From Nostoc sp. PCC 7120 = FACHB-418 (GTDB taxonomy: Bacteria; Cyanobacteriota; Cyanobacteriia; Cyanobacteriales; Nostocaceae), in assembly GCF_000009705.1 (NCBI RefSeq), contig NC_003272.1, positions 2,730,001 to 2,762,000 on the forward strand: a DNA stretch of 32,000 nt, in the 5' to 3' direction. The notes below the pieces were generated by a model. It made no database searches. It was not told the origin of the DNA and was given only the letters and a program-made list of their open reading frames with translations. Position numbers and translations under genes: made by a program. Shown one piece after another: positions 8,631 to 32,000 of this stretch. Positions within the stretch are counted from its first letter, which is position 1, and each line of letters begins with the position of its first letter.

Positions 8631-8666
8631 AAAGATAATTAAGATAGCGATCGCAGTAATATAGCT

Positions 8667-8694: not shown

Positions 8695-8970
8695 GACTTT
8701 AAAGCTTTTTATTGTCAGAGCTTTATTTTAGCTTGATGTCCTAATCCATCTGGCTACGGCTCTACTATTCTAATTCTTCTTGAATCACCAAAACAGTCCT
8801 GAAATCTTGAGTCGAAAGCACTGAGTCACAACAATTACAGATAAACCATGATGATTTACATATTCATCTTGTTATAGAATATACTAATTTTAATTTTCCT
8901 AAGAATAGTTTAATTAATCGCTGATTCAACAATCTGTATTACGGTTTATCTTTCAGCGTTTGCATCATCA

Positions 8971-10266: not shown

Positions 10267-10285
10267 GGGTGTGGGGGTGTAGGGG
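10257..10285 (+). repeat. G-run repeat (GGGGGTGTA GGGGTGT GGGGGTGTA GGGG) overlapping the methyltransferase stop codon
   Basis: Four G-runs of 4-5 nt are separated by TGTA/TGT loops, as read directly. The TAG stop lies at 10264-10266, inside the tract. Confidence 0.75.
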
Positions 10286-10348
10286 AAAGATATCTTTCTT
10301 TCATCTATGACTGTGAAACCTGTTTTATCGGGTCTGACTTCTTTAACA

Positions 10349-17529: not shown

Positions 17530-18228
17530 TCATGGTTGATTAGTTTTATCTTTCATTGATTGTATAGTTGTAGGTAATCCTAGCAATAGAGATGCCAAAT
17601 CAATATCTTTGGCGTTCTGCAAAATTTGTGGTGAGGCAAGAGGAAAGTCTTGCTGATAAAGTCGTAAATGATTAATTAGTTGATTAACACCAGTCTCTAT
17701 TTCCTGAAAATCGATATAATCTAAGTTGGTTGAATGGTTGATTTCCTGCTGTTTTTCCAAAACCAATTGATTATTTACATATATTTCCTTACTTTGAACT
17801 TCTGGTAATTGATCAGATGACACTAAAGAACTTTTATTTTTTATCTCTTGCACATACTCTAAAGCACGGTTCATAGTGCTTTCTAATTCTTGAAAATCTA
17901 TAGGCTTAGTAATAAAATCAAAAGCACCTTGATTCATGGCTCGTCTAATGTTTTTGAGATCCTCGTAAGCAGATACAATGACAGCTTTAATATCTAAATT
18001 CAGATCCCGTATTTTACTAAGTAAAGTTAGCCCATCTATCTCCGGCATATTAATATCAGTTACTAATAAATCTATTTGCGGATTTGCTTGTAATTTTTCC
18101 AAGGCATCTCTACCATTATGAGCAAAGATAAATTCATATTCTCCTTGACGTATCTTATGCCGAAAATAATGAGTTACTAAACGTTTTATTAATGGTTCGT
18201 CGTCAACAAATAATATATACTCAGTCAT
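17530..18228 (-). CDS. Response regulator: REC domain plus an approximately 130-aa C-terminal region of unknown function
   Basis: REC motifs are ILFVDDEP, LLVTDINMPEIDG, VSAY and TKP. ATG 18228 (MTEYILFVDD) is preferred and forms an ATGACTGA overlap with the upstream kinase stop (18221-18223). The track's TTG 18345 would add 39 aa inside that gene. Confidence 0.88.
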   Translation of the reverse strand: MTEYILFVDDEPLIKRLVTHYFRHKIRQGEYEFIFAHNGRDALEKLQANPQIDLLVTDINMPEIDGLTLLSKIRDLNLDIKAVIVSAYEDLKNIRRAMNQGAFDFITKPIDFQELESTMNRALEYVQEIKNKSSLVSSDQLPEVQSKEIYVNNQLVLEKQQEINHSTNLDYIDFQEIETGVNQLINHLRLYQQDFPLASPQILQNAKDIDLASLLLGLPTTIQSMKDKTNQP

Positions 18229-21200
18229 ATTTGCAACCCTGATATTCAGGAAAGGATAAATTAATTGGTATTGTAAGAACGAATTCCGTATATTCTCCAA
18301 CTTCAGTGTTAATCTTAATATCTCCCTGGTGTTGTCCGACAACAATATCGTGAATCAAAGATAATCCTAAACCTGTTCCTTCACCAGGTGGTTTAGTAGT
18401 AAAAAATGGATTGAAAATTTTATCAATCACCTCTGGTGCTATACCTTGGCCATTATCTCGGATAATAATTAGCAATGATTCGCCCTGATTTTGGGTTTTC
18501 ACAAAAAGTTTTGGAATGAATTTATCACCAACCTCCTGCTTTTTTTTGTAAGCTGCGTAGCAAGCATTGTCAACAATATTAATCAAAGCTCGACTTATAT
18601 CTTGAAATATTATTGCTACTTCTGGTAAAGAGGAATCATAATCGGTGTCAATAGTAATATTAAAACCGTTAAGTTTATTAGATAGACTATGATAAGCCAG
18701 TTGTACTGCTGTTTCAAGCAGTGAATTTATATCAGTAAATTGTGGTTGATTATTACTATCGGAACGTGCCAACAATAACATATTTTGAATAATATTGTCT
18801 GCTCTCAACCCTTGTTGCTCGATTTCTACTGAATTGTCTACTATATCAGTAATAGTTCCTTTAATATACTCAATTAATTCGGAGTTTAAAGTTTCAGACT
18901 GATTCTCAATTTCTGCTAATATTTCCTTACCTAATTCCGCAGAAATAGCTGCAAAATTATTGACAAAATTAAGCGGATTCCTAATTTCGTGGGCAACTCC
19001 AGCAGTCAGCAACCCTAGTGAAGCTAGTTTTTCTTGAGCAATAATTTTATTTTGAGCGGCTTTTAATTGACTGGTTCTTTCCTCAACTTTAATTTCTAGA
19101 TTTCGGGAATAGTATTCTAACTGTTCATATAGTAAAGCATTCTCTAAAGAAATGGCAGCTTGCGAACATAATAGTTGCAAAATTTCTAGGCGATCGCTTG
19201 TAAAAAAATCTATAGTTAGGTTATTCTCTAAATAGAGAATGCCTATCAATTTTCCTTGATTAATAATTGCTGTTGCTAAAACTGATTTTGGTTTGTGAGA
19301 TTGAATATATAGATCATTTCCAAAATTAGGCTCATCAATAGCATCACTTAACACTACATCCTCATAAGTCCGGGCTACATAATTAATTACTGATAAAGGT
19401 AAACTATCTTCAGATAAAGGTGTCGAGGAGTGTATGCAAACACTTCCTTCTATATTTATTGAGACTTCTATTTTTAGTTGTTCGTTGCGATTAAGAATTA
19501 AGCAACCATTAGATGCGCCAGCATTTTCAATTGTAATGCTCATCAATTTCTTCAACAATTCACTCAGAACTATTTCTCCTGATATTGCTTGTGAAGCTTT
19601 GACGACCGTAGCTATATCTAAAAATTCGCCCCGACGGTTATGAGTCGTAATAACATCATGATTAGTTGATAAACTGTTTTTAACACCACCCATTACTGGC
19701 GTTTTCCCTAGTAGTTGTGGATATTTTGCCAATATATCTTCTAGTTTGCGTTCTGCACCCCATAATTGATAACTATAATGAGCATCAATCATGTAAATTT
19801 TGGCAATATTTTCTCTCCCCTGACTTAACCAAAATTTAGCAGCTAGTTCATTAGCTAAGGCTACATTCTGGGTAAATTCATATTCTTGTGCTGATTTAAT
19901 TGCTTGGTCATACAAGTTCATCGCCTCTAAATATTGGCCAGAAATCCGTGCTATTTCCGCCTCTACTAACAAATATTTATGCAGGAAGTTTTCTGGGCTA
20001 TTATCTGCCCAAAGTTTCATCAATTTTTGATTATTTAGCAATTTTTGCCAAAACTCTGCTTGTTCCTCTGGAGTCACTTTGAGATATGTTGATGCTAGAA
20101 TTAGTGACTGATAAAAATTTTGGTCAGCAACAGGAATTAGACCCTTTAAATATTCTAAATATTTTTCTGCTTCTAACGAACATTTAAGTGCTGCTAAATC
20201 TTCGTCATACAGGTAGAGAATTTGCGATTTAAATGTTAAATAACAAAATAAAGGCGCAAAACTATGACGATTTTCACAGCCTGTTAAATATTCATCTTCG
20301 CTAATTTCACTAATACCAAAATCTAATTTATCTGATGTTCTAGATGTGATATTGAATAAACCAAGCCGTGCCGCCAGCATGGTATCTTTTGCCCATTGAT
20401 TCTGATTTCTTTGGACAAATTCTAACCCGTTATCTAATTCAGCTAATACATCTTCTAAGACGACTCCTTCAAATAAGGTATTAAATAACTGGAAAGCCAA
20501 AATATATCCAGCAAATTGTAAATCTCCCGATTCTAGCCCTGCATGATATCCTTCTTGGTTGATTGCACGCGTAAATTTAATATGTTTAACCCAGTTAGTT
20601 TGAAAATTCGCCAGTACAAAACAAGCTTTACATTTCTGAGCTAAATTATTAAATTTTTCACTAACTTTTAGCGCTAACTTGCCAAATTCATAACCAGTTT
20701 GATAGTCTCCCCAAATAGCACCTAGCAGCATCCCATAATTGGTATAGCCCTTAACTGATTCACCTAAATTCCCATATTTAAGTGATAAGTTCAATGATTC
20801 TAAAACAATTATTTTGTAAAGTTTTTGATCAGCAAGATAACTGGCTGGATCAATATTCATTAATAAATGTAATGCTACTATTTTTTCAGGAATAACCATC
20901 TCTGGTTTATTGATAAATTCAGCAATGTCTTGATTAGCTATGAGTTGATTCGCCTCGTTGATCAATACTTCTAAGTTAGCTTCAAAGTCAGATTCTGGTA
21001 AATAAATACCCAAGAGAGCTAAACCTTTACGACCTGATGCAATAGCTTGATTCAGATTGCCTAATAAAGTGTACTGTACAATTAGTAAATTATAAATTTT
21101 CGCTTTTTCTAGATTCGTTTTTGCTTGCTCAAGTAAGATAGAAATTAAAGATTGAGATTGGGGAAAATTCCCTAGTAAATACTCTACCTCTGACCTTTCC

Positions 21201-23572
21201 CAGTGCAAATTCAAAGCTAAATTATAATGTTCACACCAGATATCCCCAGGTAAAATATTGATACCTGAAATCAAATATTGTAAAGCTGCACTGTAGGCGT
21301 TAGCTTCTTTAGCTTTTTTAGCTGCTGCCAAATTTAACTGAGATAATTCAACTCTTTGAATATCATTAATGAGTAGTTCCCAACTTATATTGAGATGATC
21401 TACTACTTCAAATATCCTATTTGCTAGTTCTGTCTCCGAAATATTCTGCAACAGTAGTTGCCCGATTTGCAGATGAATATTACGTTTTTTATCTTGATCG
21501 ATTAAGGCGTAAGCTGCTTGTTGTACTCTGTCATGAAGAAATTTATAGTTAATTATTAATAGTGGTGATTTAACTAAATCTGCTTCTGTAATTTCTAAAT
21601 CAGAAGTAGGTACAATTAGGCCTTCTTGAGTAGCAGGAAGCAAGTCTCTAAAAGTGCTAAAAGTCGATTTTTCCGAAATAATTGCTAGTGTACTTAAATC
21701 AAAACTATTACCTACACAAGCAGATAAACGTAAAATTTGCTGAGTATTAACTGGCAGTTTTTTTAACTTATTGATCATCAAATCAACAACATTGTCTGTA
21801 ATGCCCAGTTCTTCAATTTGGACAATATTCCAATGCCAGCTAAGACTTGAAAAATCAAATATTAATAAGTCCTCTTGATATAACGTTTTCAAAAATTGGT
21901 TAACGAAAAATGGATTACCGCCAGTTTTAGACAGTACCAGTTCTGCCAATGGTTGAGCAGAGATAAAATCACTGTATATACTTTCAGAGATTAATTGATT
22001 AACAGTTTCTAAATTTAGGGGTAATAAATTAATTTCCTTAATTGTCAAACCTGATTTTTTTAATCCTTCAATAGTGATAATAGTAGGGTGATTGATGTGA
22101 ACCTCATTATCTCGATATGCGCCAATTAGAAACAAATATCCTAACTTTTTATCTCTCATAATTAAATCAATTAATTTGAGAGTAGCAGAATCCGCCCATT
22201 GCAAATCGTCTAAAAATATAGCTAAAGGGTGTTCTTTTTGACAAAATACATGAATAAAATTGTGAAAGACCAAGTTAAACCGATTCTGTGATTCAGCCGG
22301 GCCTAATTCTTGAACTGCTGGTTGCTTACCAATAATTAATTCCAATTCAGGAATCACATCAATTATTACCTGAGCATTGATTCCTAAAACCGTTAATAGT
22401 TTATTTTTCCATTCTTGGAGTTGGGTTTCATTTTCTGTTAAAAGTTGGCGAATGAGTGATTGAAATGCTTTAACTACTGCACTATAAGGGATATTTTTTT
22501 GAAATTGGTCAAATTTACCCGCAATGAAATATCCCCGGCGCTCAGTAATGGGTTTATAAATTTCCTGGACTAATGTTGATTTACCAATACCAGAATAACC
22601 AGCAACCAGCATCATTTCTGTTGTTCCTTGACTAACTCTGGTAAATGCTGTTAGTAAGTTATTAATTTCTCCTTCTCTTCCATATAGTTTTTGGGGAATT
22701 TGAAATTTATCCGAAATATCTTGACTTCCAAGAGAAAATGATGTGTTTTTACCTTCTTGGTATTGTGTTAAACAAAATTCTAAATCTGCTTTAATACCCA
22801 ACGCACTTTGATATCTCTCCTCAGCAGTTTTTGCCATCAATTTCATGACAATATCCGAGAGAGTTTTGGGTATATTTGAGTGGATTTCATGGGGAGGAAT
22901 GGGTTGTTTAGCTAGGTGACAATAGACTAGCTCTAAGGAATCAGTGGTATCAAAAGGTAATTGTTTAGTTAATAATTCATAAAAAGTCACACCTAAAGAA
23001 TAAAAATCCGTCCGATAATCAAGGGCGCGGTTCATTCTTCCTGTTTGTTCAGGTGAAATATAGGCTAGAGTACCTTCTAAAACATTGGGGTGCTTGAGAG
23101 TGGTATTTTCACGCGTAAAGACTGTAGCAATACCAAAGTCAATGATTTTAACTTCGCCTGTTTTGGGATTAAAAACTATATTTGATGGATTAATATCTTT
23201 GTGAATAACATTAGCAGCGTGAATTTGCGCTAGAGTATCAGTAATTTTGATAGCGATCGCCAAAAATTTCTCTATAGAATTAATATTATGGAAATCTCTT
23301 AAATCTGTACCACCAAAGTCTTCTAAGATTATGACTAATGTTCTATAATATGGTTCTAAACTATAAGCTTTAATCACACCATCAAAATCTAGATTACGAG
23401 TAATTTCGTATTCTTGCTTATATCTAGTTAATTCTATAGGTGTAGGATATTCCTGCTTGAGGACTTTGATTATAACGCTTTGGTTGTCCTCCTGCCTGAT
23501 ACTTCTATATACTTCAGAGTTAGCGCTGTCATATATTTTTTCTACTATTTGATAACCTGTGAGCTTTACCAT
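18221..23572 (-). CDS. Giant multidomain sensor (HstK-type): Ser/Thr protein kinase - AAA/STAND-like NTPase - TPR-like helical repeats - GAF - HisKA - HATPase
   Basis: 1783 aa. Hanks-kinase elements are VIIKVLK, HKDINPSN, IDFG and SPEQ. Walker A is GYSGIGKST (22574-22600) and the Walker B-like motif is FLDDLQWAD. A long helical region and a GAF domain follow. The H-box is AHEIRNPLN (His codon 18989-18991) and the ATPase boxes are DNGQGI and GEGTGLGLS. Confidence 0.93.
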   Translation of the reverse strand: MVKLTGYQIVEKIYDSANSEVYRSIRQEDNQSVIIKVLKQEYPTPIELTRYKQEYEITRNLDFDGVIKAYSLEPYYRTLVIILEDFGGTDLRDFHNINSIEKFLAIAIKITDTLAQIHAANVIHKDINPSNIVFNPKTGEVKIIDFGIATVFTRENTTLKHPNVLEGTLAYISPEQTGRMNRALDYRTDFYSLGVTFYELLTKQLPFDTTDSLELVYCHLAKQPIPPHEIHSNIPKTLSDIVMKLMAKTAEERYQSALGIKADLEFCLTQYQEGKNTSFSLGSQDISDKFQIPQKLYGREGEINNLLTAFTRVSQGTTEMMLVAGYSGIGKSTLVQEIYKPITERRGYFIAGKFDQFQKNIPYSAVVKAFQSLIRQLLTENETQLQEWKNKLLTVLGINAQVIIDVIPELELIIGKQPAVQELGPAESQNRFNLVFHNFIHVFCQKEHPLAIFLDDLQWADSATLKLIDLIMRDKKLGYLFLIGAYRDNEVHINHPTIITIEGLKKSGLTIKEINLLPLNLETVNQLISESIYSDFISAQPLAELVLSKTGGNPFFVNQFLKTLYQEDLLIFDFSSLSWHWNIVQIEELGITDNVVDLMINKLKKLPVNTQQILRLSACVGNSFDLSTLAIISEKSTFSTFRDLLPATQEGLIVPTSDLEITEADLVKSPLLIINYKFLHDRVQQAAYALIDQDKKRNIHLQIGQLLLQNISETELANRIFEVVDHLNISWELLINDIQRVELSQLNLAAAKKAKEANAYSAALQYLISGINILPGDIWCEHYNLALNLHWERSEVEYLLGNFPQSQSLISILLEQAKTNLEKAKIYNLLIVQYTLLGNLNQAIASGRKGLALLGIYLPESDFEANLEVLINEANQLIANQDIAEFINKPEMVIPEKIVALHLLMNIDPASYLADQKLYKIIVLESLNLSLKYGNLGESVKGYTNYGMLLGAIWGDYQTGYEFGKLALKVSEKFNNLAQKCKACFVLANFQTNWVKHIKFTRAINQEGYHAGLESGDLQFAGYILAFQLFNTLFEGVVLEDVLAELDNGLEFVQRNQNQWAKDTMLAARLGLFNITSRTSDKLDFGISEISEDEYLTGCENRHSFAPLFCYLTFKSQILYLYDEDLAALKCSLEAEKYLEYLKGLIPVADQNFYQSLILASTYLKVTPEEQAEFWQKLLNNQKLMKLWADNSPENFLHKYLLVEAEIARISGQYLEAMNLYDQAIKSAQEYEFTQNVALANELAAKFWLSQGRENIAKIYMIDAHYSYQLWGAERKLEDILAKYPQLLGKTPVMGGVKNSLSTNHDVITTHNRRGEFLDIATVVKASQAISGEIVLSELLKKLMSITIENAGASNGCLILNRNEQLKIEVSINIEGSVCIHSSTPLSEDSLPLSVINYVARTYEDVVLSDAIDEPNFGNDLYIQSHKPKSVLATAIINQGKLIGILYLENNLTIDFFTSDRLEILQLLCSQAAISLENALLYEQLEYYSRNLEIKVEERTSQLKAAQNKIIAQEKLASLGLLTAGVAHEIRNPLNFVNNFAAISAELGKEILAEIENQSETLNSELIEYIKGTITDIVDNSVEIEQQGLRADNIIQNMLLLARSDSNNQPQFTDINSLLETAVQLAYHSLSNKLNGFNITIDTDYDSSLPEVAIIFQDISRALINIVDNACYAAYKKKQEVGDKFIPKLFVKTQNQGESLLIIIRDNGQGIAPEVIDKIFNPFFTTKPPGEGTGLGLSLIHDIVVGQHQGDIKINTEVGEYTEFVLTIPINLSFPEYQGCKYD

Positions 23573-23640
23573 ATATATTGCAGTATCTACATAAATAATT
23601 TATTGCATAGTTATTGTTCCCAAAATAGATGGGACTTCAT

Positions 23641-23677
23641 AACAAGAGGTTTACAAATATAAATTTATTTATAAACC
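23641..23677 (-). terminator. Candidate intrinsic terminator between the STAS gene and the giant kinase gene
   Basis: On the minus strand the sequence reads GGTTTATAAATA-AATTTA-TATTTGTAAACC. This gives a 12-bp stem including one G-U and a 6-nt loop (23648-23677), followed by UCUUGUU (23641-23647). The stem is AT-rich, so stability is uncertain. Confidence 0.4.
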
Positions 23678-23814
23678 ATAGATTTAGTACTGTTTGACCG
23701 CACTTTCTACAGGATGCTAAGTGAACAGGTTTTAGTTGCTATTAGATTCAGTAATAGGGTATCTCATTGTATTTGGGAACTTTTGAGTAATATAACTCTT
23801 GACTGAAAGCGGAT

Positions 23815-24144
23815 TTAATACTGTGTAACTGTTTGCATAAAAGCTGCTTGATCAGGAAATACTTCAAAAACTTTTGATGTATCGCTCAGTTCAAGAATCA
23901 TCTTAATTTGTTCGTTGATTGAACAGAGTGCCAACCTAGCTTTTTTCTGTCGGACTGTTTTTAAAGTCAATAGTAGAGTGCCAAATCCAGAGCTATCCAT
24001 AAAAGTAACAAATTGAAAATCAATCAAAATAGTTGTGACATCTGATGTAATAGTTTTGCTGATTTCTTCATGAATTTGTCTGCCTTTTTTACCATCAAAA
24101 AAACCACTAGGTTGAATAATCTTGGTGTTTACATTGGAATACAT
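23815..24144 (-). CDS. STAS-domain anti-sigma-factor antagonist (SpoIIAA/RsbV-like)
   Basis: 109 aa. The conserved phosphorylation loop FMDSSGFG is present, with the candidate phospho-Ser51 codon at 23992-23994. GGGAGA lies just upstream of the ATG. Confidence 0.9.
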   Translation of the reverse strand: MYSNVNTKIIQPSGFFDGKKGRQIHEEISKTITSDVTTILIDFQFVTFMDSSGFGTLLLTLKTVRQKKARLALCSINEQIKMILELSDTSKVFEVFPDQAAFMQTVTQY

Positions 24145-24278
24145 ATGTCTCCCGATAAATAGAATTTGTACAGATAAGTAACATGAAATCCCAAGTTGAT
24201 GAATTTAGTGATACAGTTACTTAATCAGTATGGTGAATCAGCAACTCCATATAAATAATACTCACGCAGTTTAATTCT

Positions 24279-24776
24279 TCAGTCTCTTGCATTTGGTAGT
24301 TCAACTTTAGGTACTAGATTTTTCTTGAGAAATAAGCAGTTTCTACCTGCTAATTCACGATTATAACTAACTGTCCAAGCATAGTCTCTCCTAAGTTTGA
24401 GGAAAAATATACAACCCCAATGAGCTTCATGATCTAAAGGATTAAATGCCTGATCGTTAGTTTTCTCACTAAGCTTTTCTAACGCTGCTTCAAAATTAAA
24501 AATATCGCCTTGATCCCAAATACAAATCTGGAAATATTGGGGATCAAGTGTCACCGCTAACTCAACAGGAGTTTGTGGATTTAAGTGTTTATGAGCATGA
24601 CGGACTGCATTTGTAAAGCCCTCAATTAATGCAGTTTGACCTTCTATCCAGATTTGATATGGTAGCTGTTTACAGTTGAATTTTTCAAACCATTCTACAA
24701 CTGTTGCGACTGCGTCCCAGTCGCTGGCAACTTGTAGAGTAGAATGGTGGGTTTGTGAATCTGTGTGCGGTGACAT
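24279..24776 (-). CDS. RsbW/SpoIIAB-like anti-sigma regulatory serine protein kinase (GHKL ATPase)
   Basis: 165 aa. It has the N-box LIEGFTNAVRHAH and a G1-like WDQGDIF, and its size is typical of partner-switching kinases. Its ATG (24774-24776) directly abuts the TAA stop (24777-24779) of the upstream sugar transferase. Confidence 0.8.
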   Translation of the reverse strand: MSPHTDSQTHHSTLQVASDWDAVATVVEWFEKFNCKQLPYQIWIEGQTALIEGFTNAVRHAHKHLNPQTPVELAVTLDPQYFQICIWDQGDIFNFEAALEKLSEKTNDQAFNPLDHEAHWGCIFFLKLRRDYAWTVSYNRELAGRNCLFLKKNLVPKVELPNARD

Positions 24777-25778
24777 TTAGACTGCCCCTGAATCCTTTTT
24801 AAAAACAACTATGATTGTTTTTAAAATTAATTTGAGATCGTAAACTAAACTCCAATTATTTTGATAACGCAAATCTAACTGAATGACATCCTCAAAATTA
24901 CGAATCTTTGAACGGCCATTGACTTGCCACTCACCACTAAGTCCAGGCTTGACATCCAGTCTTTGCCAATTTGCTACTTCATAATGTTCTAATTCATTGG
25001 GAGTTGGTGGACGAGTCCCGACCAAACTCATATCTCCTGTGAGAATATTCCAAAATTGGGGAAATTCATCTAAGCTAGTTTTACGTAAGAAGCGACCAAC
25101 ACGGGTAATTCGTGGGTCTTTGTCATTTTTAAAGAAAGCACCAGAAGCTTGATTAGGAATAGTATCTTTGAGTGCTTCTGCATTTGTCACCATCGAGCGG
25201 AACTTCCAGATGCGAAACCGTCGTCCCATCCAACCGCAACGAGTTTGGCTAAATAATACAGGACCAGGACTATCGAGTTTAATAGCGATCGCTATCGGCA
25301 CAAACAGCACGGCGGTAACACTCAAGCCGATGACAGCCCCCACAATGTCGATCGCACGTTTCATAGGCGATCGCACCGATGGATGGGTTAAGGGTGGACG
25401 CTGCTCAATTTTGCGTGTTGCTGTCGGGACAATTGCATCTGTATTGGCTTCGATGTTCAATATCTGCTCCAAACCGACAAGAGAAAAAGCCAATTTAACT
25501 TGAGGATGAATACTCCAAAAGATTAATTCAATCTTTTTTGCTTGTGCTGATTTATGATTACTAATTAATGACCCCACACCACTACTATCAATAATTGTGG
25601 TTTGACCAAAATCTAAGATAATCTTAGTCAAGCTAGAGTCTTCTATCCAACTTTGAAAATACTCGCGGAAAGATATAGCTTCAATTACCGTTAATCTTGG
25701 CGGTAACTGCACTAATAAAGTGCCATGAATCCGAGTTATAACTAGAGAAATTGGGGTTTTGGTATGAGGGCTAATCAT
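24777..25778 (-). CDS. STAS domain fused to a monotopic polyprenyl-phosphate phosphoglycosyl transferase (Bac_transf/PglC-WbaP C-terminal type priming enzyme)
   Basis: 333 aa counted from ATG 25778. Residues 10-112 or so are STAS-like, with IIDSSGVG (Ser65 codon 25584-25586). A linker follows, then KRAIDIVGAVIGLSVTAVLFVPIAIAI (re-entrant helix), DEFPQ, LVGTRPP and KPGLSGEWQV. The ATG forms an ATGA overlap with the upstream gene stop (25775-25778). The track's TTG 25841 is rejected. Confidence 0.88.
   Translation of the reverse strand: MISPHTKTPISLVITRIHGTLLVQLPPRLTVIEAISFREYFQSWIEDSSLTKIILDFGQTTIIDSSGVGSLISNHKSAQAKKIELIFWSIHPQVKLAFSLVGLEQILNIEANTDAIVPTATRKIEQRPPLTHPSVRSPMKRAIDIVGAVIGLSVTAVLFVPIAIAIKLDSPGPVLFSQTRCGWMGRRFRIWKFRSMVTNAEALKDTIPNQASGAFFKNDKDPRITRVGRFLRKTSLDEFPQFWNILTGDMSLVGTRPPTPNELEHYEVANWQRLDVKPGLSGEWQVNGRSKIRNFEDVIQLDLRYQNNWSLVYDLKLILKTIIVVFKKDSGAV
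25443..25751 (-). other. STAS domain portion of the priming glycosyltransferase (approximate bounds)
   Basis: It aligns by eye with the free STAS protein 23815-24144. Compare ILDFGQTTIIDSSGVGSL with LIDFQFVTFMDSSGFGTL, and LIFWSIHPQVKLAFSLVGLEQILNI with LALCSINEQIKMILELSDTSKVFEV. Confidence 0.8.
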
Positions 25779-26284
25779 TTGGATATACCTACTGATAATT
25801 CTTTGAGGGGTTGAGCAAAACGGCGTTCTAGACTTCGACAAAGAGCGATCGCCGAAGCATGGGAAACATCGGCAACTGAGACTTGTCTGGGAGCTTGAAT
25901 AAATCGCACTAAATCACCAGGCGACCAAGCAACAGGAACATTAATCTGTGATAAAGCTAAACCAAGTTCTACTTGATGATCATCAACGTGTTCCTGATAT
26001 TGCTGAGAGCGAGAAACCAAAATATAAGGCTTATCCAGAGAATCCAACAGTAGTAAAGTTCCTTCACCACAATGAGCAATCACAATTCGCGCTTGATGAA
26101 TTAACTCCTGAAATTTCTCTTCTTTGAGGAAACGGTAAACCCTAGCCCCAGCAGGCAAAATTGTCGAGTTACCATACTGTACGATAATTTCTTCTTGAAT
26201 TAATTCCGTCTGTAGTAATACCTCAATCCAAGACATGAGGCGATTAAAAGGATATTGTTCCGTACCAACTGTGACCAAAATCAT
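25775..26284 (-). CDS. Alg13-like glycosyltransferase catalytic subunit (Glyco_tran_28_C; PssE/Cps14G type)
   Basis: 169 aa counted from ATG 26284. The N-terminus MILVTVGTEQYPFNRL is typical of this family. It forms an ATGA overlap with the upstream Alg14-like gene (26281-26284). Confidence 0.8.
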   Translation of the reverse strand: MILVTVGTEQYPFNRLMSWIEVLLQTELIQEEIIVQYGNSTILPAGARVYRFLKEEKFQELIHQARIVIAHCGEGTLLLLDSLDKPYILVSRSQQYQEHVDDHQVELGLALSQINVPVAWSPGDLVRFIQAPRQVSVADVSHASAIALCRSLERRFAQPLKELSVGISK

Positions 26285-26736
26285 AAACTTTCTTGAGGAA
26301 CGATTAATTCGGCTTGAGGATAAAGGGTTTGCAGTTGCGGCCACTGCACATATAAAACGCTGAGAAAAGGTAAAACTAACCTAGCGGATAAACTCAAAGT
26401 AATAATCCGCGTCACAGATTCGACAAACACTGTCTGACTACCAAATAATTTGCCAAGAATGAGAAAAGGGACAGCGACACCAGCACCAGTAGACAAGATT
26501 AAATCTGGTTTGGTTTTGCTAATTACTTGAAAGGCTAGAAGCAAATTTCTGAACAAATTAGGTAAATTGCGATTGGTGGGACTATAAGCCCAATACACTT
26601 TTTCTTCAGTTAAAGCGGCTTGTGTGGTTGCAGTTTTAAAAGTTACCCAGACTCGTTCGTGATTTTCCCAAAAAGGTTGCAATTGCTGGAGTCCTTTAAA
26701 ATGTCCACCGGAGGAGCAAATTAATAATACTTTCAT
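26281..26736 (-). CDS. Alg14-like glycosyltransferase membrane/acceptor subunit (PssD/Cps14F type)
   Basis: 151 aa. MKVLLICSSGGHF... is typical of Alg14-like proteins. It is paired with the Alg13-like gene immediately downstream. Confidence 0.8.
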   Translation of the reverse strand: MKVLLICSSGGHFKGLQQLQPFWENHERVWVTFKTATTQAALTEEKVYWAYSPTNRNLPNLFRNLLLAFQVISKTKPDLILSTGAGVAVPFLILGKLFGSQTVFVESVTRIITLSLSARLVLPFLSVLYVQWPQLQTLYPQAELIVPQESL

Positions 26737-26809: not shown

Positions 26810-27841
26810 TCAGATTGATGGCTTAAGAATTTGTTCTTTTTGAATGCGTTTTTCCTGGCTATTTCCAGTTATTTGCATTACTAATCTCTCTAAGGGTTGG
26901 TATGCAAATTGTGGTAGAATCCAGAGTAAATAGGCTGCAACAAAAGAGATGAAGGTGCGATGGGGTTCTTCTATAAGAATTCGCCAATGGAGTTTCACTG
27001 CTTGGTGTAGTAGATTAACTGCCATTGCAGGCGATCGCCCTCTTGTCGCCCGACGAGCTAAATATCGTAGTTGATAGGCTTTAGCTCTATTGCCCCATCG
27101 CTCGATAAACTCAGGGTTATAGGCTTGGGTTTTGACTAAAATCCGTTCCCAAGATTCATATTGTTTGAGAACATTGGCTGATAAACCTCCCATGTTGACA
27201 CGGTAGAGGGTGAGGGCTTCGGGTATCCCCTCTATTTTCCAGGTAGTTTGGAGAGCAATTCGCAGCCAGCATTCAATGTCTTCCGATTGACGAAAACTGT
27301 CATCAAAGTAAAAGTCTTCTACTTCCCCGTAAAGGTTCTCTTGAAACTTGATAGTGTCCAAAACAGCCCGACGAATCACCACTGAGGAGCCGTTACTGAT
27401 GGGATTGCGACAGAACAAATATTCTGGTGTAATGTCCGTTAACTTGGGCATTTGATAAATACCCAGAGGCTTACCTTGGTCATCAATCAGACTAGAACGA
27501 GAAAAACTCACCCCAACTTCTGGCGATCGCTCAAAATGCTCTAAATGTTTGGCTAATTTCTCCGGTAGCCAAAGATCATCACTATCAACAAAGGCTAAAT
27601 ATTCCCCTCGCGCCTGACGAATACCTGTATTTCTCGCCCCAGCCAAGCCGCGATTCTGTTGATGAATAATCCTGATGCGCTCATCCTGGAATTGCTTGCA
27701 GATATCAATACTCTTATCTGTAGAACCATCATCAACAATGATAATTTCCAAGTCTCGATATGTTTGCGCCAGCACAGACCGCAATGTCTCAGCCACCGAA
27801 CTTTCAGAATTGTAAACGGGAATAATTACAGACAAATTCAT
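26810..27841 (-). CDS. Family 2 glycosyltransferase
   Basis: GT2 motifs are SVIIPVYN, IIVDDGSTD and FVDSDD. ATG 27841 is preferred over the track's TTG 27862; the start is uncertain by 7 codons. Confidence 0.88.
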   Translation of the reverse strand: MNLSVIIPVYNSESSVAETLRSVLAQTYRDLEIIIVDDGSTDKSIDICKQFQDERIRIIHQQNRGLAGARNTGIRQARGEYLAFVDSDDLWLPEKLAKHLEHFERSPEVGVSFSRSSLIDDQGKPLGIYQMPKLTDITPEYLFCRNPISNGSSVVIRRAVLDTIKFQENLYGEVEDFYFDDSFRQSEDIECWLRIALQTTWKIEGIPEALTLYRVNMGGLSANVLKQYESWERILVKTQAYNPEFIERWGNRAKAYQLRYLARRATRGRSPAMAVNLLHQAVKLHWRILIEEPHRTFISFVAAYLLWILPQFAYQPLERLVMQITGNSQEKRIQKEQILKPSI

Positions 27842-27926
27842 AATTCGTAATAACCTCTGCAAAGGCTTGCATCTACGTAATGCGTATTATTCAGTTTGGA
27901 AAATCTTTCCCCCTTGCTCCCCTTCC

Positions 27927-28916
27927 CTAAGGGATACTGCCGCGAAAGGGTTCTGCCTTAGCGGTACTGCCTCTGTGTGTATTAAGTCCAAAAACCCTCT
28001 CCATCACCAACGCCCCAAACACAGCCAGCAAAGTGAAAAAAGTACGCTGTGGTTGGTGAAACAATAACCGCCAATCGGAAATTAAAGCACGGGTAATAAA
28101 ATCCACCCCTACCCGTGCTGGTAACTTCAAACGAAAAGCCCGCCGAGCTAAATAACGTAGATGCACAGCCTGAGCTAAAGCAAAATGATTATGTACCAAT
28201 TGAGGTGCATAAATTCTCGCCCTGTTGACAAGTTGCTTCCAACCAGCTTCCATATAGTACAAGTTAGAAGAAAGCCCACTAGAACTTGTGCGATAGCGCG
28301 TCAACACTTGGTTGATTCCCTGGATTTGCCAATCTGTGGTAGAACTCACCCTGAGTAGCCATTCCAAATCTTCGGAATAGCTCATGTCCAAACAGAAGCC
28401 CCCCACTTGGGTAAAAACTTCTTTACGAATCACCCAGTTAGAAGTGGTAGTTGTCGGGTTTTCTGAAAGGAAATATTCTGGTTTTAAGTCGTTTAAACGA
28501 GAAGTGGATACTTGTCCAGTTGGTTCACCAGCCTGATCTAATATTTCTACTTGAGCAAAGCTGACTCCTAAGCGAGAATTAGACTGAAAATGTTGCCAGT
28601 GCTGACTGAGTTTGTCAGGTAGCCATTGATCATCGGCATCTAGAAAGGCGATGATTTGACCTTGGCTATGAGCGACACCCTGATTACGAGCAGCAGAAAC
28701 TCCCTGATTGGTCTGATTAATTAGATAGATGCAATCGCTCGTTTTTTGATGTTCTCTGACAACTTCAATTGTGTCATCCGTAGAACCATCATTAATTATC
28801 AGTAATTCCCAATCGGTGAAAGTTTGCTTTTCTACAGAGGCGATCGCATCCGGCAAAAATTTAGCAGCATTGTAAGCGGGAATAATCACCGATATCAATA
28901 TGCTTGCGTGGGTCAT
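27927..28916 (-). CDS. Family 2 glycosyltransferase (paralog of 26810-27841)
   Basis: GT2 motifs are SVIIPAYN, LIINDGSTD and FLDADD. Its ATG forms an ATGA overlap with the Wzx stop (28913-28916). Confidence 0.88.
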   Translation of the reverse strand: MTHASILISVIIPAYNAAKFLPDAIASVEKQTFTDWELLIINDGSTDDTIEVVREHQKTSDCIYLINQTNQGVSAARNQGVAHSQGQIIAFLDADDQWLPDKLSQHWQHFQSNSRLGVSFAQVEILDQAGEPTGQVSTSRLNDLKPEYFLSENPTTTTSNWVIRKEVFTQVGGFCLDMSYSEDLEWLLRVSSTTDWQIQGINQVLTRYRTSSSGLSSNLYYMEAGWKQLVNRARIYAPQLVHNHFALAQAVHLRYLARRAFRLKLPARVGVDFITRALISDWRLLFHQPQRTFFTLLAVFGALVMERVFGLNTHRGSTAKAEPFRGSIP

Positions 28917-30190
28917 CCCTTCACCTCCTGTAAGAATTTAGGTAGGACTTGCCGAGTTGCCCAAATAGTATATAGAGGCTGCAAAATGAGGTGAGTTGCT
29001 GTGACTGCGATCGCCGCGCCTAAAATACCCCACTGGGTTCCCAGGGAAATTGCTATAGCCAAACACATAGTAAATACTAGATTCCAGCGCAATTCGATTT
29101 GCGGTTGACCAAAGGCGCGGAACATCAAAGACGCAGCATCAGCAAAGGGACGGGATAAAGCCGAACAACAAATCAGAATTAAAATCGGGACGGCTCCTCG
29201 TTCCACCCATTTATGACCAAATATTAAAGGAACATAGAAGGGGGCTAAACTAGATTGGAATATGACTAATGGCACAATCATCAAGGCTATTTTGCGTAGG
29301 CTCTGCATATAGCGTTGGGTAAATAACGTTGCCTGAGAATTGAGGTCACACAGGTCAGAGAACAACGATACTCTGATAGCATTTATTACACTCAAGCTCA
29401 GTCCTAATCCGGCATTAAAAGCAAAATAATATACCCCTAAAGCCTGGACACTGAGAAACCGTCCAATTAAGAGATAATCTATGTTTTCCCGAAAGATGGT
29501 AAGTAACTCAATTCCCAGAACACGGGAAGCAAAAGAGGTAATTTTTCCACCTCCAGCGAAAGTCAAAGATTTAGTCATTCGCCAAGGATGATATTTGAAT
29601 GTGAGAATAATCCAGATGGGTGCGACCAAAAACTTAGGTAAAACGATCGCCCACATTCCCATTCCCGATAAAGCCAAAATTGCCGTCAAAATGTTATCGG
29701 TGGATACTTGCACGGAAGTAATTAAGGCCAATATATTCAGGCGATTTTCCCTTCTGATTAATGCCGTTTGCACCATCGCCAGAGGATAGATTAAGTAAGT
29801 AATGGCGATGAGACAAATCGGGAGAATGAGTTGGGAATTGTTATAGAATTGGGCGATCGCCAACGATGCTAGACATTGAGCAATAAATAAAACACCAGCA
29901 ATCAACCAATTCAACCCGTAAGCAGTGCGGCATAACTCTTCTACCTCGGAAGCATCCGCCTGGACTATTTTGTCAGCAATCCCATTGCGGGTAAAAACGC
30001 GGATAAATTCGTAAGTCATTAAGACAATGGCTGCAAGCCCATAATCCTCAGCGCTGAGAAACCGCGCCAGAATGACGGTAGTAATGAGCCTAAACACGCG
30101 GATAACTAATTCCGCCGCCCCCATCCAGCCAATATTCCGGATAAAGCGGTCTTGAAACAGGCGTTTCTGTAGAGTTTGTATTCGGTTCAT
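28913..30190 (-). CDS. wzx: Wzx-type polysaccharide flippase (MOP/PST family)
   Basis: About 425 aa and polytopic (many hydrophobic segments). The N-terminal ILARFLSAEDYGLAA is typical of Polysacc_synt flippases. ATG 30190 forms an ATGA overlap with the upstream GT4 stop. The track's TTG 30217 is rejected. Confidence 0.8.
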   Translation of the reverse strand: MNRIQTLQKRLFQDRFIRNIGWMGAAELVIRVFRLITTVILARFLSAEDYGLAAIVLMTYEFIRVFTRNGIADKIVQADASEVEELCRTAYGLNWLIAGVLFIAQCLASLAIAQFYNNSQLILPICLIAITYLIYPLAMVQTALIRRENRLNILALITSVQVSTDNILTAILALSGMGMWAIVLPKFLVAPIWIILTFKYHPWRMTKSLTFAGGGKITSFASRVLGIELLTIFRENIDYLLIGRFLSVQALGVYYFAFNAGLGLSLSVINAIRVSLFSDLCDLNSQATLFTQRYMQSLRKIALMIVPLVIFQSSLAPFYVPLIFGHKWVERGAVPILILICCSALSRPFADAASLMFRAFGQPQIELRWNLVFTMCLAIAISLGTQWGILGAAIAVTATHLILQPLYTIWATRQVLPKFLQEVKG

Positions 30191-31173
30191 TTGAACTCCC
30201 TCAAGACCTGTTCCCAAGCATCCACATAATCATCCCAGGCTTTTGCAGCGCTGAATCTGCCTTGCTGTCCCCAGGATTTTCGTTGTTCCGGGGAGGCTTG
30301 AATCATTTGCACAATTCCATCCGCCAACATCCGACAATTCTCTGGCTGAAACTGAATCCCACAATTCTTTGCCTGTTCAGTCAGACCATCAACATCACTC
30401 ACCAAAACAGGTCTAGCAGCCGCGCGAGCCTCTAAACAAACATTACCCCAAGGTTCCCATCGGGAAGGAACCACAACCGCGTCACAACGGCTTAAAAACC
30501 CTGGGACATCATCAATTTTTCCCAGAAAGTGAATATGAGGATGATTGTGAGCCAAAGTTTTCAGCGATCGCTCGTCTGGTCCCTGTCCTCCTAAAAGTAA
30601 CTGTACAGAACCAATAGGTAATAACTGTACCGCCTCAATCAAGCGATCGAATCCTTTTTGATGGGTGAACCGTCCATAAGCTGCCAAGGTAAATAGTTCG
30701 TCCGAGTCAGCCTTTTCTGATACTTGCAAAAATGGATCTATATTTCGACTAGAGCGAATCAAGCGCATCTTTTCCGGTGGAACTAATCGCGCAGACTCCA
30801 GCCAATGCTGTTGTCCTTCGGAGATGGATACAACCCGATCCATTAGCCGATAGTTCAGGCGTAACATAGCGCGAAATCGCCAAGTAGAGGGGACTTGATG
30901 CTGTTCAAACCCTGCACTGTAGTGATGTTCTATCAATATTCGGGCTTTCGCCTTCCAGGTTAATAAATCTGGAATACCCTTCCAAGACGAGGCACGATGT
31001 AACACCAATAAATCAGGCTGCCAACTTTTTAAAGTATCTTTTGCTTGGTCTTGAGTCACCAATTGAAACTCTACCCAAGATGACAACCGTGTCTGCGTCA
31101 AGCTGGCTAGAGTAGCGCGAATCCCGCCTGTCCACCCCATGCCTTGAGAACCAAGGATATGCAGCACTTTCAT
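30187..31173 (-). CDS. Family 4 (group 1) glycosyltransferase
   Basis: The N-terminus is MKVLHILGSQGMGWTGG. The GT4 E-x7-E region is EPWGNVCLEARAAARPVLVSDVDG. ATG 31173 forms an ATGA overlap with the upstream gene stop. The track's TTG 31266 is rejected. Confidence 0.87.
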   Translation of the reverse strand: MKVLHILGSQGMGWTGGIRATLASLTQTRLSSWVEFQLVTQDQAKDTLKSWQPDLLVLHRASSWKGIPDLLTWKAKARILIEHHYSAGFEQHQVPSTWRFRAMLRLNYRLMDRVVSISEGQQHWLESARLVPPEKMRLIRSSRNIDPFLQVSEKADSDELFTLAAYGRFTHQKGFDRLIEAVQLLPIGSVQLLLGGQGPDERSLKTLAHNHPHIHFLGKIDDVPGFLSRCDAVVVPSRWEPWGNVCLEARAAARPVLVSDVDGLTEQAKNCGIQFQPENCRMLADGIVQMIQASPEQRKSWGQQGRFSAAKAWDDYVDAWEQVLREFK

Positions 31174-32000
31174 GAGGCAAATACCTGTAGTGGTTGTTGA
31201 CTGGTACTTTGAGACAGAATACGTTCTTGGTAGGCTTGGGCAATGGTTTCGGCGTGGGCTGACCAAGTATACTTTTTCACTTGCTGGAAGCGTATTGATA
31301 GGTCTGGTGTGGCTTCTGGGTAATTGAGCAAATCGCTAATGGTGTTAGCCCAAATATCCGGTTTACCCACTGGACAGTAAACTGCTGCATTACCTCCTAC
31401 TTCCCGCAGCACAGGAATATCACTTACAACAATGATGCTGCCACAGGCTAAGGCTTCAATCAAAGGCATTCCAAAGCCTTCGGCTTCGCTGGTCATTAAT
31501 ACTACTGCTGCCCGCCGATAAAATTCTGCCAAATCTTTCTGTTCTAAGCGTGGGAATAATCGGATACCATCACGAATCCCCAAGCGATCTATTCGTGCCT
31601 GCATATCAGGTTCCCATTCTGCGCCGACCCTAACCAACAGTAAATCTGGGTGGTGATGGCGTAGACGGGCGTAGGTTTCTAGTAAAACATCAAGGCGTTT
31701 ACGTTGGAGATTGACGCTGATATTCAACAAGAAAGGGCGATCGCCTATTTTTTCCTGAATAATGGCAGCCATATTTGCATTGCTCTCGTGAGGAGAAAAT
31801 TCACGGGCAATTCCTAGAGGAACTTGGACTAGCTTATCGGGGCTGATCAGTTGATAGTGAAGAATTTCCTCTCGCACAGATTGGGTTGTGTAAAATATCA
31901 CTGCCGCCTTGCAAAAACCATTCAAGGCGTAGCGCTGTATGGTGTTATAGCGGATGGAGCGGGGATATTTATCTGGTTGCAAGATGGAGCGAAACACATC
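31170..32000 (-). CDS. Family 4 (group 1) glycosyltransferase, 5' end truncated by the window edge
   Basis: The C-terminal GT4 domain carries EAEGFGMPLIEALACGSIIVVSDIPVLREVGG. The frame is open to the window edge and the visible 275 aa lack the usual N-terminal start of GT4 enzymes. Confidence 0.85.
   Translation of the reverse strand, partial: DVFRSILQPDKYPRSIRYNTIQRYALNGFCKAAVIFYTTQSVREEILHYQLISPDKLVQVPLGIAREFSPHESNANMAAIIQEKIGDRPFLLNISVNLQRKRLDVLLETYARLRHHHPDLLLVRVGAEWEPDMQARIDRLGIRDGIRLFPRLEQKDLAEFYRRAAVVLMTSEAEGFGMPLIEALACGSIIVVSDIPVLREVGGNAAVYCPVGKPDIWANTISDLLNYPEATPDLSIRFQQVKKYTWSAHAETIAQAYQERILSQSTSQQPLQVFAS

Follow-up and report, generated by a model that had tools for sequence, protein, structure and literature searches.

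In Nostoc sp. PCC 7120, the closest described counterpart of the system considered here is All4160, a protein in which an N-terminal STAS domain is joined to a Bac_transf glycosyltransferase domain. The polysaccharide of the heterocyst envelope depends on All4160 (Harada, Matsuoka & Ehira, Mol Microbiol 2026; PMC13555669), and replacement of Ser74 of All4160 by alanine restores both the polysaccharide and diazotrophic growth in a mutant without HenR, a phosphatase with a receiver (REC) and a SpoIIE domain (PMC13555669). Among the five RsbW-like kinases of PCC 7120, two, Alr3423 and All2284, interact with the S74A form of the STAS domain in two-hybrid tests, and each phosphorylates All4160 Ser74 in vitro in an ATP-dependent manner; the authors concluded that phosphorylation inhibits All4160 directly (PMC13555669). 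The henR defect was suppressed only by deletion of alr3423, and since deletion of all2284 failed to suppress it, All2284 was thought to have another target in vivo, for which the authors proposed All2285 (PMC13555669). The present work concerns the locus that encodes All2285, itself a fusion of a STAS domain with a phosphoglycosyl transferase (PGT), together with All2284 and the free STAS protein All2283. It was analysed within a stretch of 32,000 nt of PCC 7120 DNA (NC_003272.1, positions 2,730,001 to 2,762,000), referred to below as the window.

The principle of the switch, the kinase activity of All2284, and the hypothesis that All2284 acts on All2285 were already published in 2026. In the published work on the module all2283 and alr2280 are not mentioned, and no candidate phosphatase or input is given for All2285. 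The present analysis adds candidates for the phosphatase and the sensor, and an account of where the free STAS protein stands. All4160 had been listed as a STAS-glycosyltransferase in a 2021 review (PMC8256260), and the combination of STAS and Bac_transf is, according to InterPro, widespread in cyanobacteria and rare elsewhere, XssP being an example (PMC13555669). An earlier, sequence-only reading of the window had remarked that no STAS-PGT fusion was known to be characterised. That remark was outdated, as the genetics of All4160 date from 2007, XssP from 2021 and the All4160 mechanism from 2026; the wide cyanobacterial distribution of the fusion was also in print already (Harada et al. 2026). 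Its core inference, that the priming enzyme itself is the target of the kinase and of a PP2C phosphatase with no sigma factor involved, matches the 2026 model for All4160. We put the probability that all2285, all2284 and all2283 form a partner-switching-like phospho-switch, with an enzyme rather than a sigma factor as its target, at about 0.7. For All2285 the mechanism would hold by analogy with the paralogue and from synteny.

The fusion protein, its kinase and the free STAS protein

The sequence-only reading had noticed that the PGT carries an N-terminal extension resembling the neighbouring STAS protein. This extension scores above the gathering score of PF01740 (Table 1) and aligns with free STAS All2283 at 34% identity over 62 residues (E 3e-11), and the Bac_transf domain is full length (E 8e-67 over profile positions 1-179, Pfam). 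The Bac_transf match and the Pfam matches of All2284 and All2283 likewise exceed their curated thresholds. The mechanical open reading frame (ORF) extends to a TTG at 25841; orthologues are 331-333 amino acids long, which supports the ATG at 25778 as the start. When a profile of 18 orthologues was used, residues 134-328 matched WbaP (E 1e-49) and PglC (E 1e-37), while residues 9-115 matched SpoIIAA, TM1442 and RsbV. The Asp237-Glu238 dyad in SLDEFPQ is invariant and aligns with TSLDELPQ of WbaP, Pro161 in the hydrophobic helix is invariant among the orthologues, and both Asp64 and Ser65 are invariant in 117 of 117. Conservation of the DSSG serine among orthologues, the lack of which had been named as a refutation of the claim, is therefore complete in this set. 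The serine codons lie where they had been placed, 25586-25584 being read within IDSSG in the fusion and 23994-23992 within MDSSG in the free protein, and Ser65 corresponds to Ser74 of All4160 and to Ser58 of SpoIIAA.

Structure prediction with AlphaFold2 (AF2) from a 116-sequence alignment gave a mean predicted local distance difference test (pLDDT) score of 76.5 and a predicted TM-score (pTM) of 0.67. With an 18-sequence alignment the STAS domain was again good and the PGT domain poor (pLDDT 30-40). In both models the STAS domain had a pLDDT of mostly 77-90, with values of about 71-78 near its C-terminal end. The hydrophobic helix spans residues of about 138-169 in the AF2 model and is predicted to be a re-entrant membrane helix. 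Foldseek matched the C-terminal half to PglC (TM 0.72-0.76, normalised to target) and the N-terminal half to TM1442, to SpoIIAA in its complex with SpoIIAB, and to RsbV (TM 0.8-0.9, root-mean-square deviation 1.5-2 Å). None of the PDB matches listed in the sequence and fold searches aligns both halves as STAS and PGT. By its sequence and predicted fold, All2285 is a small monotopic (PglC-like) PGT.

All2284 belongs to the RsbW/SpoIIAB-like kinases, as had been proposed from its sequence: it matches HATPase_c_2 (E 2e-13), and a profile built from 12 orthologues finds RsbW (6M36_A) with E 4e-8. Its N-box (E..N..RH) is aligned, and its G1 box, DQGDIF, aligns with DEGDSF of RsbW. The G2 box of the All2284 group is atypical, with HWG in place of GxG, and other kinases have GRGL. 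All2284 was considered as a possible pseudokinase on account of its odd G1 and G2 boxes, and this was ruled out by the G1 match to RsbW together with the published kinase activity. Kinases of the All2284 group also carry an insertion with a conserved F-N-P-L motif, and GRGL is retained in the kinases of Microcystis and Limnothrix and in the group paired with REC-PP2C proteins. A dedicated subfamily of PGT-adjacent kinases was looked for and none was found, All2284 being 32-46% identical to PGT-adjacent and REC-PP2C-paired kinases alike. All2284 has no orthologue in N. punctiforme (PMC13555669).

The TAA of the PGT gene (24779-24777) is contiguous with the ATG of the kinase gene (24776-24774), and 134 nt separate the kinase gene from the free STAS gene, in agreement with the sequence-only reading. 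On the other side, the stop of the Alg13-like gene all2286 overlaps the PGT start as ATGA (25778-25775), and the stop of the Alg14-like gene all2287 overlaps the Alg13-like start as ATGA (26284-26281), so that four genes are chained in the manner typical of translational coupling. The two-part glycosyltransferase encoded by all2286 and all2287 is probably the second-sugar transferase. Synechococcus/Cyanobium, Calothrix and A. cylindrica share the gene order of the operon. The genes all2285-all2284-all2283 form the end of exopolysaccharide (EPS) cluster III, and all2293-all2283 have been listed as one polysaccharide-cluster operon in which all2285-89 encode glycosyltransferases, all2290 an export protein and all2293 a pyruvyl transferase (PMC12267927). 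Biofilms induce all2285-86 of this cluster, which was named cluster III (PMC13156569), and desiccation and salt are said to induce all2285 via OrrA (bioRxiv 10.64898/2026.04.08.717354). A promoter and terminator scan of 23400-26000 gave counts at the level of shuffled sequence (8 vs 7.1 and 3 vs 1.9), and it speaks neither for nor against a separate all2283 transcript.

To place the fusion among its relatives, one genome per species was scanned and 80 loci were kept of at least 600 matches, a sample and not a census. Five loci were added by context look-up, and the neighbourhoods were annotated with hidden Markov models (HMMs) seeded from the window. The best 120 database matches all carry PF01740 and PF02397; they belong to many cyanobacterial orders, with identities of 61-100%. 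A neighbour-joining tree of the fusions gave four groups. The clade of All2285 comprises ten non-redundant loci, among them Synechococcus/Cyanobium, Aphanothece, Geminocystis and five Nostocales, with Alg14-like and Alg13-like genes upstream; the Alg14-like gene is conserved directly upstream in all All2285-type loci that have sufficient upstream sequence. In nine of these ten loci an RsbW-like gene starts no more than 83 bp from the PGT stop or overlaps it. A second clade (Limnothrix, Spirulina, Microcystis) has the kinase directly downstream and no Alg13/14 pair. The All4160-like clade, about 24 loci and mostly Nostocales, has no kinase, STAS or PP2C gene within 10 kb. Four-domain fusions of Pseudanabaena and Tumidithrix make up the last group, in which a single ORF of about 700-740 amino acids encodes Alg13, Alg14, STAS and PGT domains (Pfam).

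A same-strand RsbW-like gene was found directly downstream at 12 of 47 STAS-PGT loci and at none of 41 loci with a STAS-less PGT (Fisher p 3e-4, a statistic that ignores kinship), so that the co-occurrence the sequence-only reading had proposed to survey is specific to the fusion in this sample. Distant lineages share this layout, the kinase gene starting right at the PGT stop or overlapping it. The DSSG motif is kept in 45 of 48 STAS-PGT proteins across all clades, and in the All4160-like clade the loop reads TFMDSSGLG, with its serine in the same alignment column as Ser65. Tumidithrix elongata (L054 7435-11107) has kept the STAS domain with the loop changed to DGAG, the serine being gone, and the neighbouring divergent RsbW-like gene is a remnant of 83 amino acids that ends before the G1 and G2 boxes. 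Joint loss of the serine and the kinase is what would be expected of a kinase-substrate pair. The REC-SpoIIE gene directly upstream in Tumidithrix is still intact despite the decayed kinase and phospho-site.

Several further arrangements of the fusion were observed. In the Alg13-Alg14-STAS-PGT proteins (L039-L043, about 9023-11176; L054 8996-11107; P0153) the STAS domain is flanked by the second-step transferase on one side and the priming enzyme on the other. Protein P0151 (600 amino acids) combines a WecG/TagA-type glycosyltransferase with STAS and Bac_transf domains, an independent fusion N-terminal to a STAS-PGT. It may be speculated from these recurrent N-terminal fusions of second-step transferases that the STAS domain lies at the interface of the priming enzyme and the next transferase. 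A contig from an alphaproteobacterial metagenome-assembled genome (Tabrizicola sp., L006) has Wzx, GT2, GT2, Alg14, Alg13, STAS-PGT and kinase genes at 64% identity; this cyanobacterial-type order probably reflects a binning error, horizontal transfer being less likely. In Calothrix sp. PCC 6303 (L083 8718-9941) an insertion sequence with a DDE_Tnp_ISAZ013 transposase lies between the Alg13-like and STAS-PGT genes and breaks the Alg13/PGT coupling, and the PGT, kinase and REC-SpoIIE genes are still together on one strand.

Among the sampled loci, a free STAS gene follows the kinase gene only in the window, Richelia sinica, Nostoc FACHB-280 and Anabaena cylindrica, and there is none at Calothrix PCC 6303 or at any non-Nostocales locus of the fusion sample. 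All2283 matches SpoIIAA and TM1442 in sequence (PF01740 E 7e-15). It is 54-65% identical to the free STAS proteins of Richelia sinica, Nostoc FACHB-280 and A. cylindrica, and 45-49% identical to those adjoining REC-PP2C genes in Arthrospira, Scytolyngbya and Synechococcus Cruz-9H2. This places All2283 in the REC-PP2C-linked group and argues that it is no recent copy of the fused domain. Since most of the sampled lineages with a PGT-kinase pair lack the free protein, direct phosphorylation of the fusion is favoured as the central event. The PGT-linked STAS domain and the kinase make up the conserved core of the module, to which the free STAS protein is an accessory that probably competes for the kinase.

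The candidate phosphatase Alr2280 and the H-NOX neighbourhood

The only SpoIIE/PP2C protein of the window, as had been noted before, is the REC-PP2C Alr2280 at 16186-17451 (SpoIIE E 1e-42, Response_reg E 2e-29). Richelia, Nostoc FACHB-280, A. cylindrica and Calothrix PCC 6303 each encode a relative of Alr2280 within 0.9-1.4 kb on the downstream side of their STAS-PGT gene. These relatives, which adjoin the kinase or the free STAS gene, are 70-75% identical to Alr2280 (measured for three of the four genomes). In Richelia, Nostoc FACHB-280 and A. cylindrica the REC-PP2C gene is convergent with the free STAS gene at a distance of about 0.3 kb or less, and in Calothrix PCC 6303 it stands directly after the kinase gene on the same strand. 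In Tumidithrix a REC-PP2C gene whose product is 55% identical is found directly upstream of the Alg13-Alg14-STAS-PGT gene. Of the REC-PP2C and H-NOX operon, Calothrix and Tumidithrix keep the REC-PP2C alone.

H-NOX and REC-PP2C genes stand together beside the module in four Nostocaceae, that is in the window, Richelia, Nostoc FACHB-280 and A. cylindrica, and in the last three, as in the window, the phosphatase gene stands between the module and the H-NOX gene. An HNOBA kinase gene between the two was confirmed in the window and in A. cylindrica (L084); in Richelia and FACHB-280 (L003, L004) a kinase in this position was not annotated. Within the window 39 nt separate alr2279 from alr2280. The probable ATG of alr2279 at 12247 lies within the final codons of the H-NOX gene, and the TTG at 12166 with which the mechanical ORF begins is probably too far upstream. 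The Alr2278 sequence is the same as, or near-identical to, that of the PDB entries named Alr2278, a name that it also bears in UniRef. The literature searched on this protein is structural and pharmacological, using it as a stand-in for soluble guanylate cyclase, and no host output was found described there.

A rearranged form of the neighbourhood was found in the picocyanobacterium Synechococcus sp. Cruz-9H2 (L092, JAGQBZ010000002.1), where a Wza gene and two unknown genes are followed by genes for H-NOX, an HNOBA-HK-REC-Hpt protein and a REC-SpoIIE protein, with a convergent free STAS gene. The REC-SpoIIE protein is 52% identical to Alr2280 and the free STAS protein 45% identical to All2283. 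This H-NOX unit adjoins a divergent Wzx/GT2/GT2 operon with 51-63% identity to that of the window and the same order, and the STAS-PGT and kinase genes are expected just beyond the end of the stretch examined. The two GT2 domains of Cruz-9H2 are fused in one ORF of 699 amino acids, and a GT4 gene and a sulfotransferase-like gene are also present. In about a dozen further Nostocales assemblies the matches to the fusion, the REC-PP2C and H-NOX fell on contigs of equal size (including 4.2, 14.7, 21.6 and 21.8 kb), which suggests that the three are co-located there too.

Between all2283 and alr2280 the window contains all2281 (REC) and all2282, which encodes a protein of 1783 amino acids with Ser/Thr kinase, AAA_16, TPR, GAF and histidine kinase domains (17530-23572, - strand). 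Among the compared genomes this interval is found only in PCC 7120, being missing from Richelia, FACHB-280 and A. cylindrica. The G+C content is 33-35% at 17-25 kb as against 39-49% in the rest of the window. The all2281-82 stretch may be an insertion or an extra input of the module.

Elsewhere, in Arthrospira, Leptolyngbyaceae JSC-12, Scytolyngbya and Drouetiella (L086, L087, L088, L089), an Alr2280-type gene is divergently paired with a gene for an RsbW-like kinase, a pairing that seems to be a module conserved among cyanobacteria. The free STAS gene near the Scytolyngbya pair adjoins a gene for a cellulose-synthase-like glycosyltransferase. Other settings of H-NOX were seen in Nostoc sp. 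CENA543 (L090 10001-13517), with a stand-alone HNOBA protein of 162 amino acids followed by two GT4 genes, and in Leptolyngbyaceae JSC-12 (L091 7139-11995), with an HNOBA-GAF-PAS-GGDEF-EAL protein and an HNOBA histidine kinase.

The features of the locus are collected in Table 1. Locus numbers all2285, all2284, all2283, alr2280 and alr2278 were assigned by consecutive counting from the GenBank accessions, which were obtained by exact look-up. The remainder of the window at 420-10266 has unrelated content of a housekeeping or mobile type: purC, an Omp85/BamA homologue, lpxC-fabZ-lpxA-lpxB, and genes for a Uma2-family endonuclease and a C-5 cytosine DNA methyltransferase.

Table 1. Features of the all2285 locus, in positions of the window
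Feature	Position	Strand	Basis
all2285 (BAB73984): STAS + Bac_transf PGT, priming enzyme of cluster III	24777-25778	-	Pfam, 100% identity
STAS domain of All2285, residues 13-114 from the ATG	25437-25742	-	PF01740, E 8e-16
Ser65 codon, D-S-S-G loop, predicted phospho-acceptor	25584-25586	-	translation IDSSG
Bac_transf catalytic domain of All2285, residues 140-327	24798-25361	-	Pfam
all2284 (BAB73983): RsbW/SpoIIAB-type serine kinase, 165 amino acids	24279-24776	-	HATPase_c_2
all2283 (BAB73982): free single-domain STAS, 109 amino acids; Ser51 codon 23992-23994	23815-24144	-	Pfam
alr2280 (BAB73979): REC + SpoIIE/PP2C, candidate phosphatase of the module	16186-17451	+	Pfam
alr2279: hybrid histidine kinase, HNOBA-PAS-GAF-HisKA-HATPase-REC-REC-Hpt	12247-16146	+	Pfam
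alr2278 (BAB73977): H-NOX haem sensor, 'Ns H-NOX' of the structural literature	11688-12257	+	HNOB, E 4e-54
all2286: Alg13-like (Glyco_tran_28_C) half of a two-part glycosyltransferase	25775-26284	-	Pfam
all2287: Alg14-like membrane-anchoring half of the same glycosyltransferase	26281-26736	-	Pfam
Remainder of the EPS operon in the window: two GT2, Wzx-type flippase (all2290), two GT4	26810-31997	-	Pfam

Proposed switch and alternative explanations

In the proposed mechanism, All2285 would prime the cluster III polysaccharide at the cytoplasmic face of the membrane by transferring the initial sugar phosphate to the lipid carrier used for the Wzx-dependent polymer of all2285-all2293, with the cytoplasmic N-terminal STAS domain of All2285 as a regulatory handle. 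All2284 would bind the unphosphorylated STAS domain and phosphorylate Ser65, a step that we regard as very probable. Phosphorylated Ser65 would turn priming off, and by analogy with All4160 an inhibitory effect is probable, with less assurance than the phosphorylation itself. Alr2280 would then strip the phosphate and turn priming on again, and we lean towards it as the phosphatase of the module. All2283 would be a second substrate of both All2284 and Alr2280, which in its dephosphorylated form competes for or sequesters the kinase and so sharpens the switch.

The receiver of Alr2280 would be fed by the hybrid histidine kinase Alr2279 as the probable phosphodonor, itself under the H-NOX protein Alr2278, so that a gas or redox signal might gate polysaccharide priming post-translationally. 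Nitric oxide is the textbook ligand of H-NOX proteins. Phosphotransfer from Alr2279 to Alr2280 is suggested by the 39-nt spacing, by the Hpt domain, and by conservation of the trio in A. cylindrica and Cruz-9H2. Overall, the odds that H-NOX is the input of the module are near even or a little below. Tentatively, and at slightly less than even odds, the physiological output of Alr2278 would be post-translational control of EPS priming, exerted through an Alr2279 Hpt phosphorelay and Alr2280 on All2283 and/or Ser65.

A number of observations weigh against this scheme. Diazotrophic growth was retained in an all2284 single mutant, for which no effect on polysaccharide has been described (PMC13555669). 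Geminocystis is the sole member of the All2285 clade without an adjoining kinase, and loci L007-L009 and the entire All4160-like clade also have none, so adjacency of the kinase is not obligatory. The loose specificity of All2284, which phosphorylates All4160, and the presence of five such kinases make cross-talk possible. That phosphorylation turns the enzyme off is a direction taken over from All4160. Elsewhere in cyanobacteria H-NOX genes occur with other partners, for example GGDEF-EAL proteins, and all2281 and all2282, which separate alr2280 from all2283, could supply a different input.

The most serious uncertainty is whether the switch is served by a different phosphatase, HenR or another REC-PP2C, with the alr2278-80 neighbourhood being coincidental or a case of shared transcriptional islands; we hold this to be rather unlikely. 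It would explain why alr2280 lies 6.4 kb from all2283 on the opposite strand, behind two unrelated signalling genes. It would also fit the breadth of the Alr2280-type family, whose members show 56-84% identity across the phylum (52-62% to those outside the Nostocales), the many All2285-type loci that show no PP2C gene within 10 kb, and the Alr2280-type genes of Arthrospira, Leptolyngbyaceae JSC-12, Scytolyngbya and Drouetiella, which are paired with a kinase and have no STAS-PGT gene within 8 kb, so that the family is not dedicated to STAS-PGTs. Against coincidence stand the recurrence of the adjacency in three gene arrangements, across Nostocaceae, the Pseudanabaenales-type Tumidithrix and a picocyanobacterium, and the short distance, about 0.3 kb or less, between phosphatase and free STAS genes in the other three Nostocaceae loci. 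A separate possibility is that All2284 merely holds the STAS domain of All2285 stoichiometrically and is pulled off by dephosphorylated All2283, the free protein being the real substrate of All2284 and Alr2280 and Ser65 phosphorylation irrelevant or secondary. Such titration would accord with the position of a free STAS gene next to the Alr2280-type gene in the window, Richelia, FACHB-280, A. cylindrica, Arthrospira, Scytolyngbya and Cruz-9H2, and with the likeness of All2283 to the REC-PP2C-linked STAS proteins (45-49%) as against the fused domain (34% over 62 residues). It is nevertheless unlikely: no free STAS gene is near in Synechococcus/Cyanobium, Aphanothece, Microcystis, Limnothrix, Spirulina or Calothrix PCC 6303, mere binding does not need an invariant Ser65, and in All4160 replacement of the serine by alanine is by itself enough to dispense with the phosphatase, the fused STAS domain being a substrate of the kinases (PMC13555669).

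That All2284 is instead an anti-sigma factor for a sigma factor encoded elsewhere (e.g. group 3, SigJ or SigF) is suggested by its membership of the RsbW/SpoIIAB family, by its annotation in public sources as an anti-sigma regulatory factor, and by a 2.4-fold rise of all2290 on sigJ overexpression in the literature. The STAS domains of All2285 and All2283 would then be antagonists that report the state of the priming enzyme, and the output would be transcription and not enzyme activity. The sequence-only reading had found no sigma factor gene, and no sigma factor domain is present in the 24 scanned ORFs of at least 100 amino acids in the window; one ORF of that size was left out of the scan, at 25168-25503 (+), antisense inside the PGT gene. 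The Pfam-annotated neighbourhoods also held no sigma gene, although a sigma model was not part of the HMM survey of the other loci. With none found in either place, the locus is better called partner-switching-like. The kinase start that abuts or overlaps the PGT stop in distant lineages, and the restoration of polysaccharide by a change in the paralogue's own STAS serine (PMC13555669), further make the anti-sigma explanation very unlikely. The least likely of the alternatives is that the STAS domain of All2285 is a structural module, used for membrane-proximal scaffolding, oligomerisation or docking of the Alg13/Alg14-like transferase, with no phospho-regulation in vivo. The polypeptides of Pseudanabaena and Tumidithrix and P0151, with STAS between the second-step transferase and the PGT, and the Tumidithrix protein that retains STAS without the serine would suit such a role, which conflicts with the DSSG motif in 45 of 48 fusions, the Ser65 of 117 of 117 orthologues, the association of the kinase gene specifically with STAS-bearing PGTs, and the in vitro phosphorylation and genetics of the paralogue. 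A scaffold and a phospho-switch are not mutually exclusive.

Comparison with known systems

Phospho-control of a priming glycosyltransferase would be a fast gate on a costly polymer that bypasses transcription. Cluster III responds to biofilm growth, desiccation and salt, and the proposed switch is therefore relevant to the engineering of cyanobacterial biofilms and polysaccharide production. The chain from signal to enzyme is testable in a genetically tractable organism.

As an enzyme, All2285 resembles PglC and WbaP in its catalytic domain, the Asp-Glu dyad and the re-entrant helix, which is predicted here. PglC has no regulatory domain, and WbaP differs in its soluble domain and has additional transmembrane helices, whereas All2285 has a STAS domain. 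With the RsbV/RsbW/RsbU and SpoIIAA/SpoIIAB/SpoIIE systems of Bacillus the locus shares the STAS serine loop, a GHKL kinase with N-box and G1, and a PP2C protein. It differs from the Bacillus switches in having no sigma factor, in that one STAS domain is a covalent part of the membrane enzyme that would be the output, and in the control of the candidate phosphatase by a REC domain. SypA/SypE of Vibrio fischeri and HmpU/HmpV/HmpW of Nostoc punctiforme are closer in some respects, as they govern polysaccharide behaviour, have no known sigma factor, and are active with the STAS protein unphosphorylated (PMC8256260). SypA and HmpV are free STAS proteins whose target is not known, whereas at All2285 and All4160 the target is marked by the fusion. 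A target of the All2285 type is a concrete candidate answer to the question of what sigma-less STAS proteins such as SypA and HmpV act on.

The H-NOX/HnoK networks share with alr2278-79 a stand-alone H-NOX gene that adjoins the gene for an HNOBA histidine kinase. In Shewanella, Vibrio, Legionella and Silicibacter the output of these networks is linked to biofilm or matrix, and the outputs described for H-NOX are cyclic di-GMP enzymes, transcription factors and quorum-sensing relays. A REC-PP2C acting on STAS proteins was not found as an H-NOX output in the H-NOX literature searched. If the proposed chain is true, PP2C/STAS control in place of cyclic di-GMP or transcription would be a new class of output for bacterial H-NOX, and the Nostoc protein that serves as a stand-in for human soluble guanylate cyclase would have a role in its host. 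The occurrence of the unit in Nostocaceae, and in rearranged form in picocyanobacteria, would mean that this is not the peculiarity of one lineage.

XssP, required for synechan in Synechocystis PCC 6803 (Maeda et al. eLife 2021), is likewise a STAS and Bac_transf priming enzyme of a Wzx/Wzy-dependent EPS and is essential for it. Its known control is transcriptional, through XssS/XssR/XssQ, and it is an All4160 homologue according to Harada et al. The system of All4160, Alr3423 and HenR in the same organism is most similar to the present one, with an N-terminal STAS and Bac_transf enzyme, a DSSG serine, an RsbW-type kinase, a REC-SpoIIE phosphatase, here a candidate, and no sigma factor. All4160 differs in serving the heterocyst envelope polysaccharide, and the genes of its clade are solitary, with no kinase or phosphatase gene near them in the sampled loci. 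All2285, which shares about 58% identity with the All4160-like clade, falls in a separate clade. At its locus the kinase gene abuts the PGT stop, the free STAS gene comes next, and the REC-PP2C gene with the H-NOX and histidine kinase genes is next door. An upstream sensor can accordingly be identified at the All2285 locus, whereas no cognate kinase is known for HenR. The locus thus offers a second and better-wired example, in which kinase, free STAS, phosphatase, histidine kinase and sensor can all be read from gene order, and which, if the proposed mechanism is true, would give the first STAS-PGT switch with a complete chain from sensor to enzyme.

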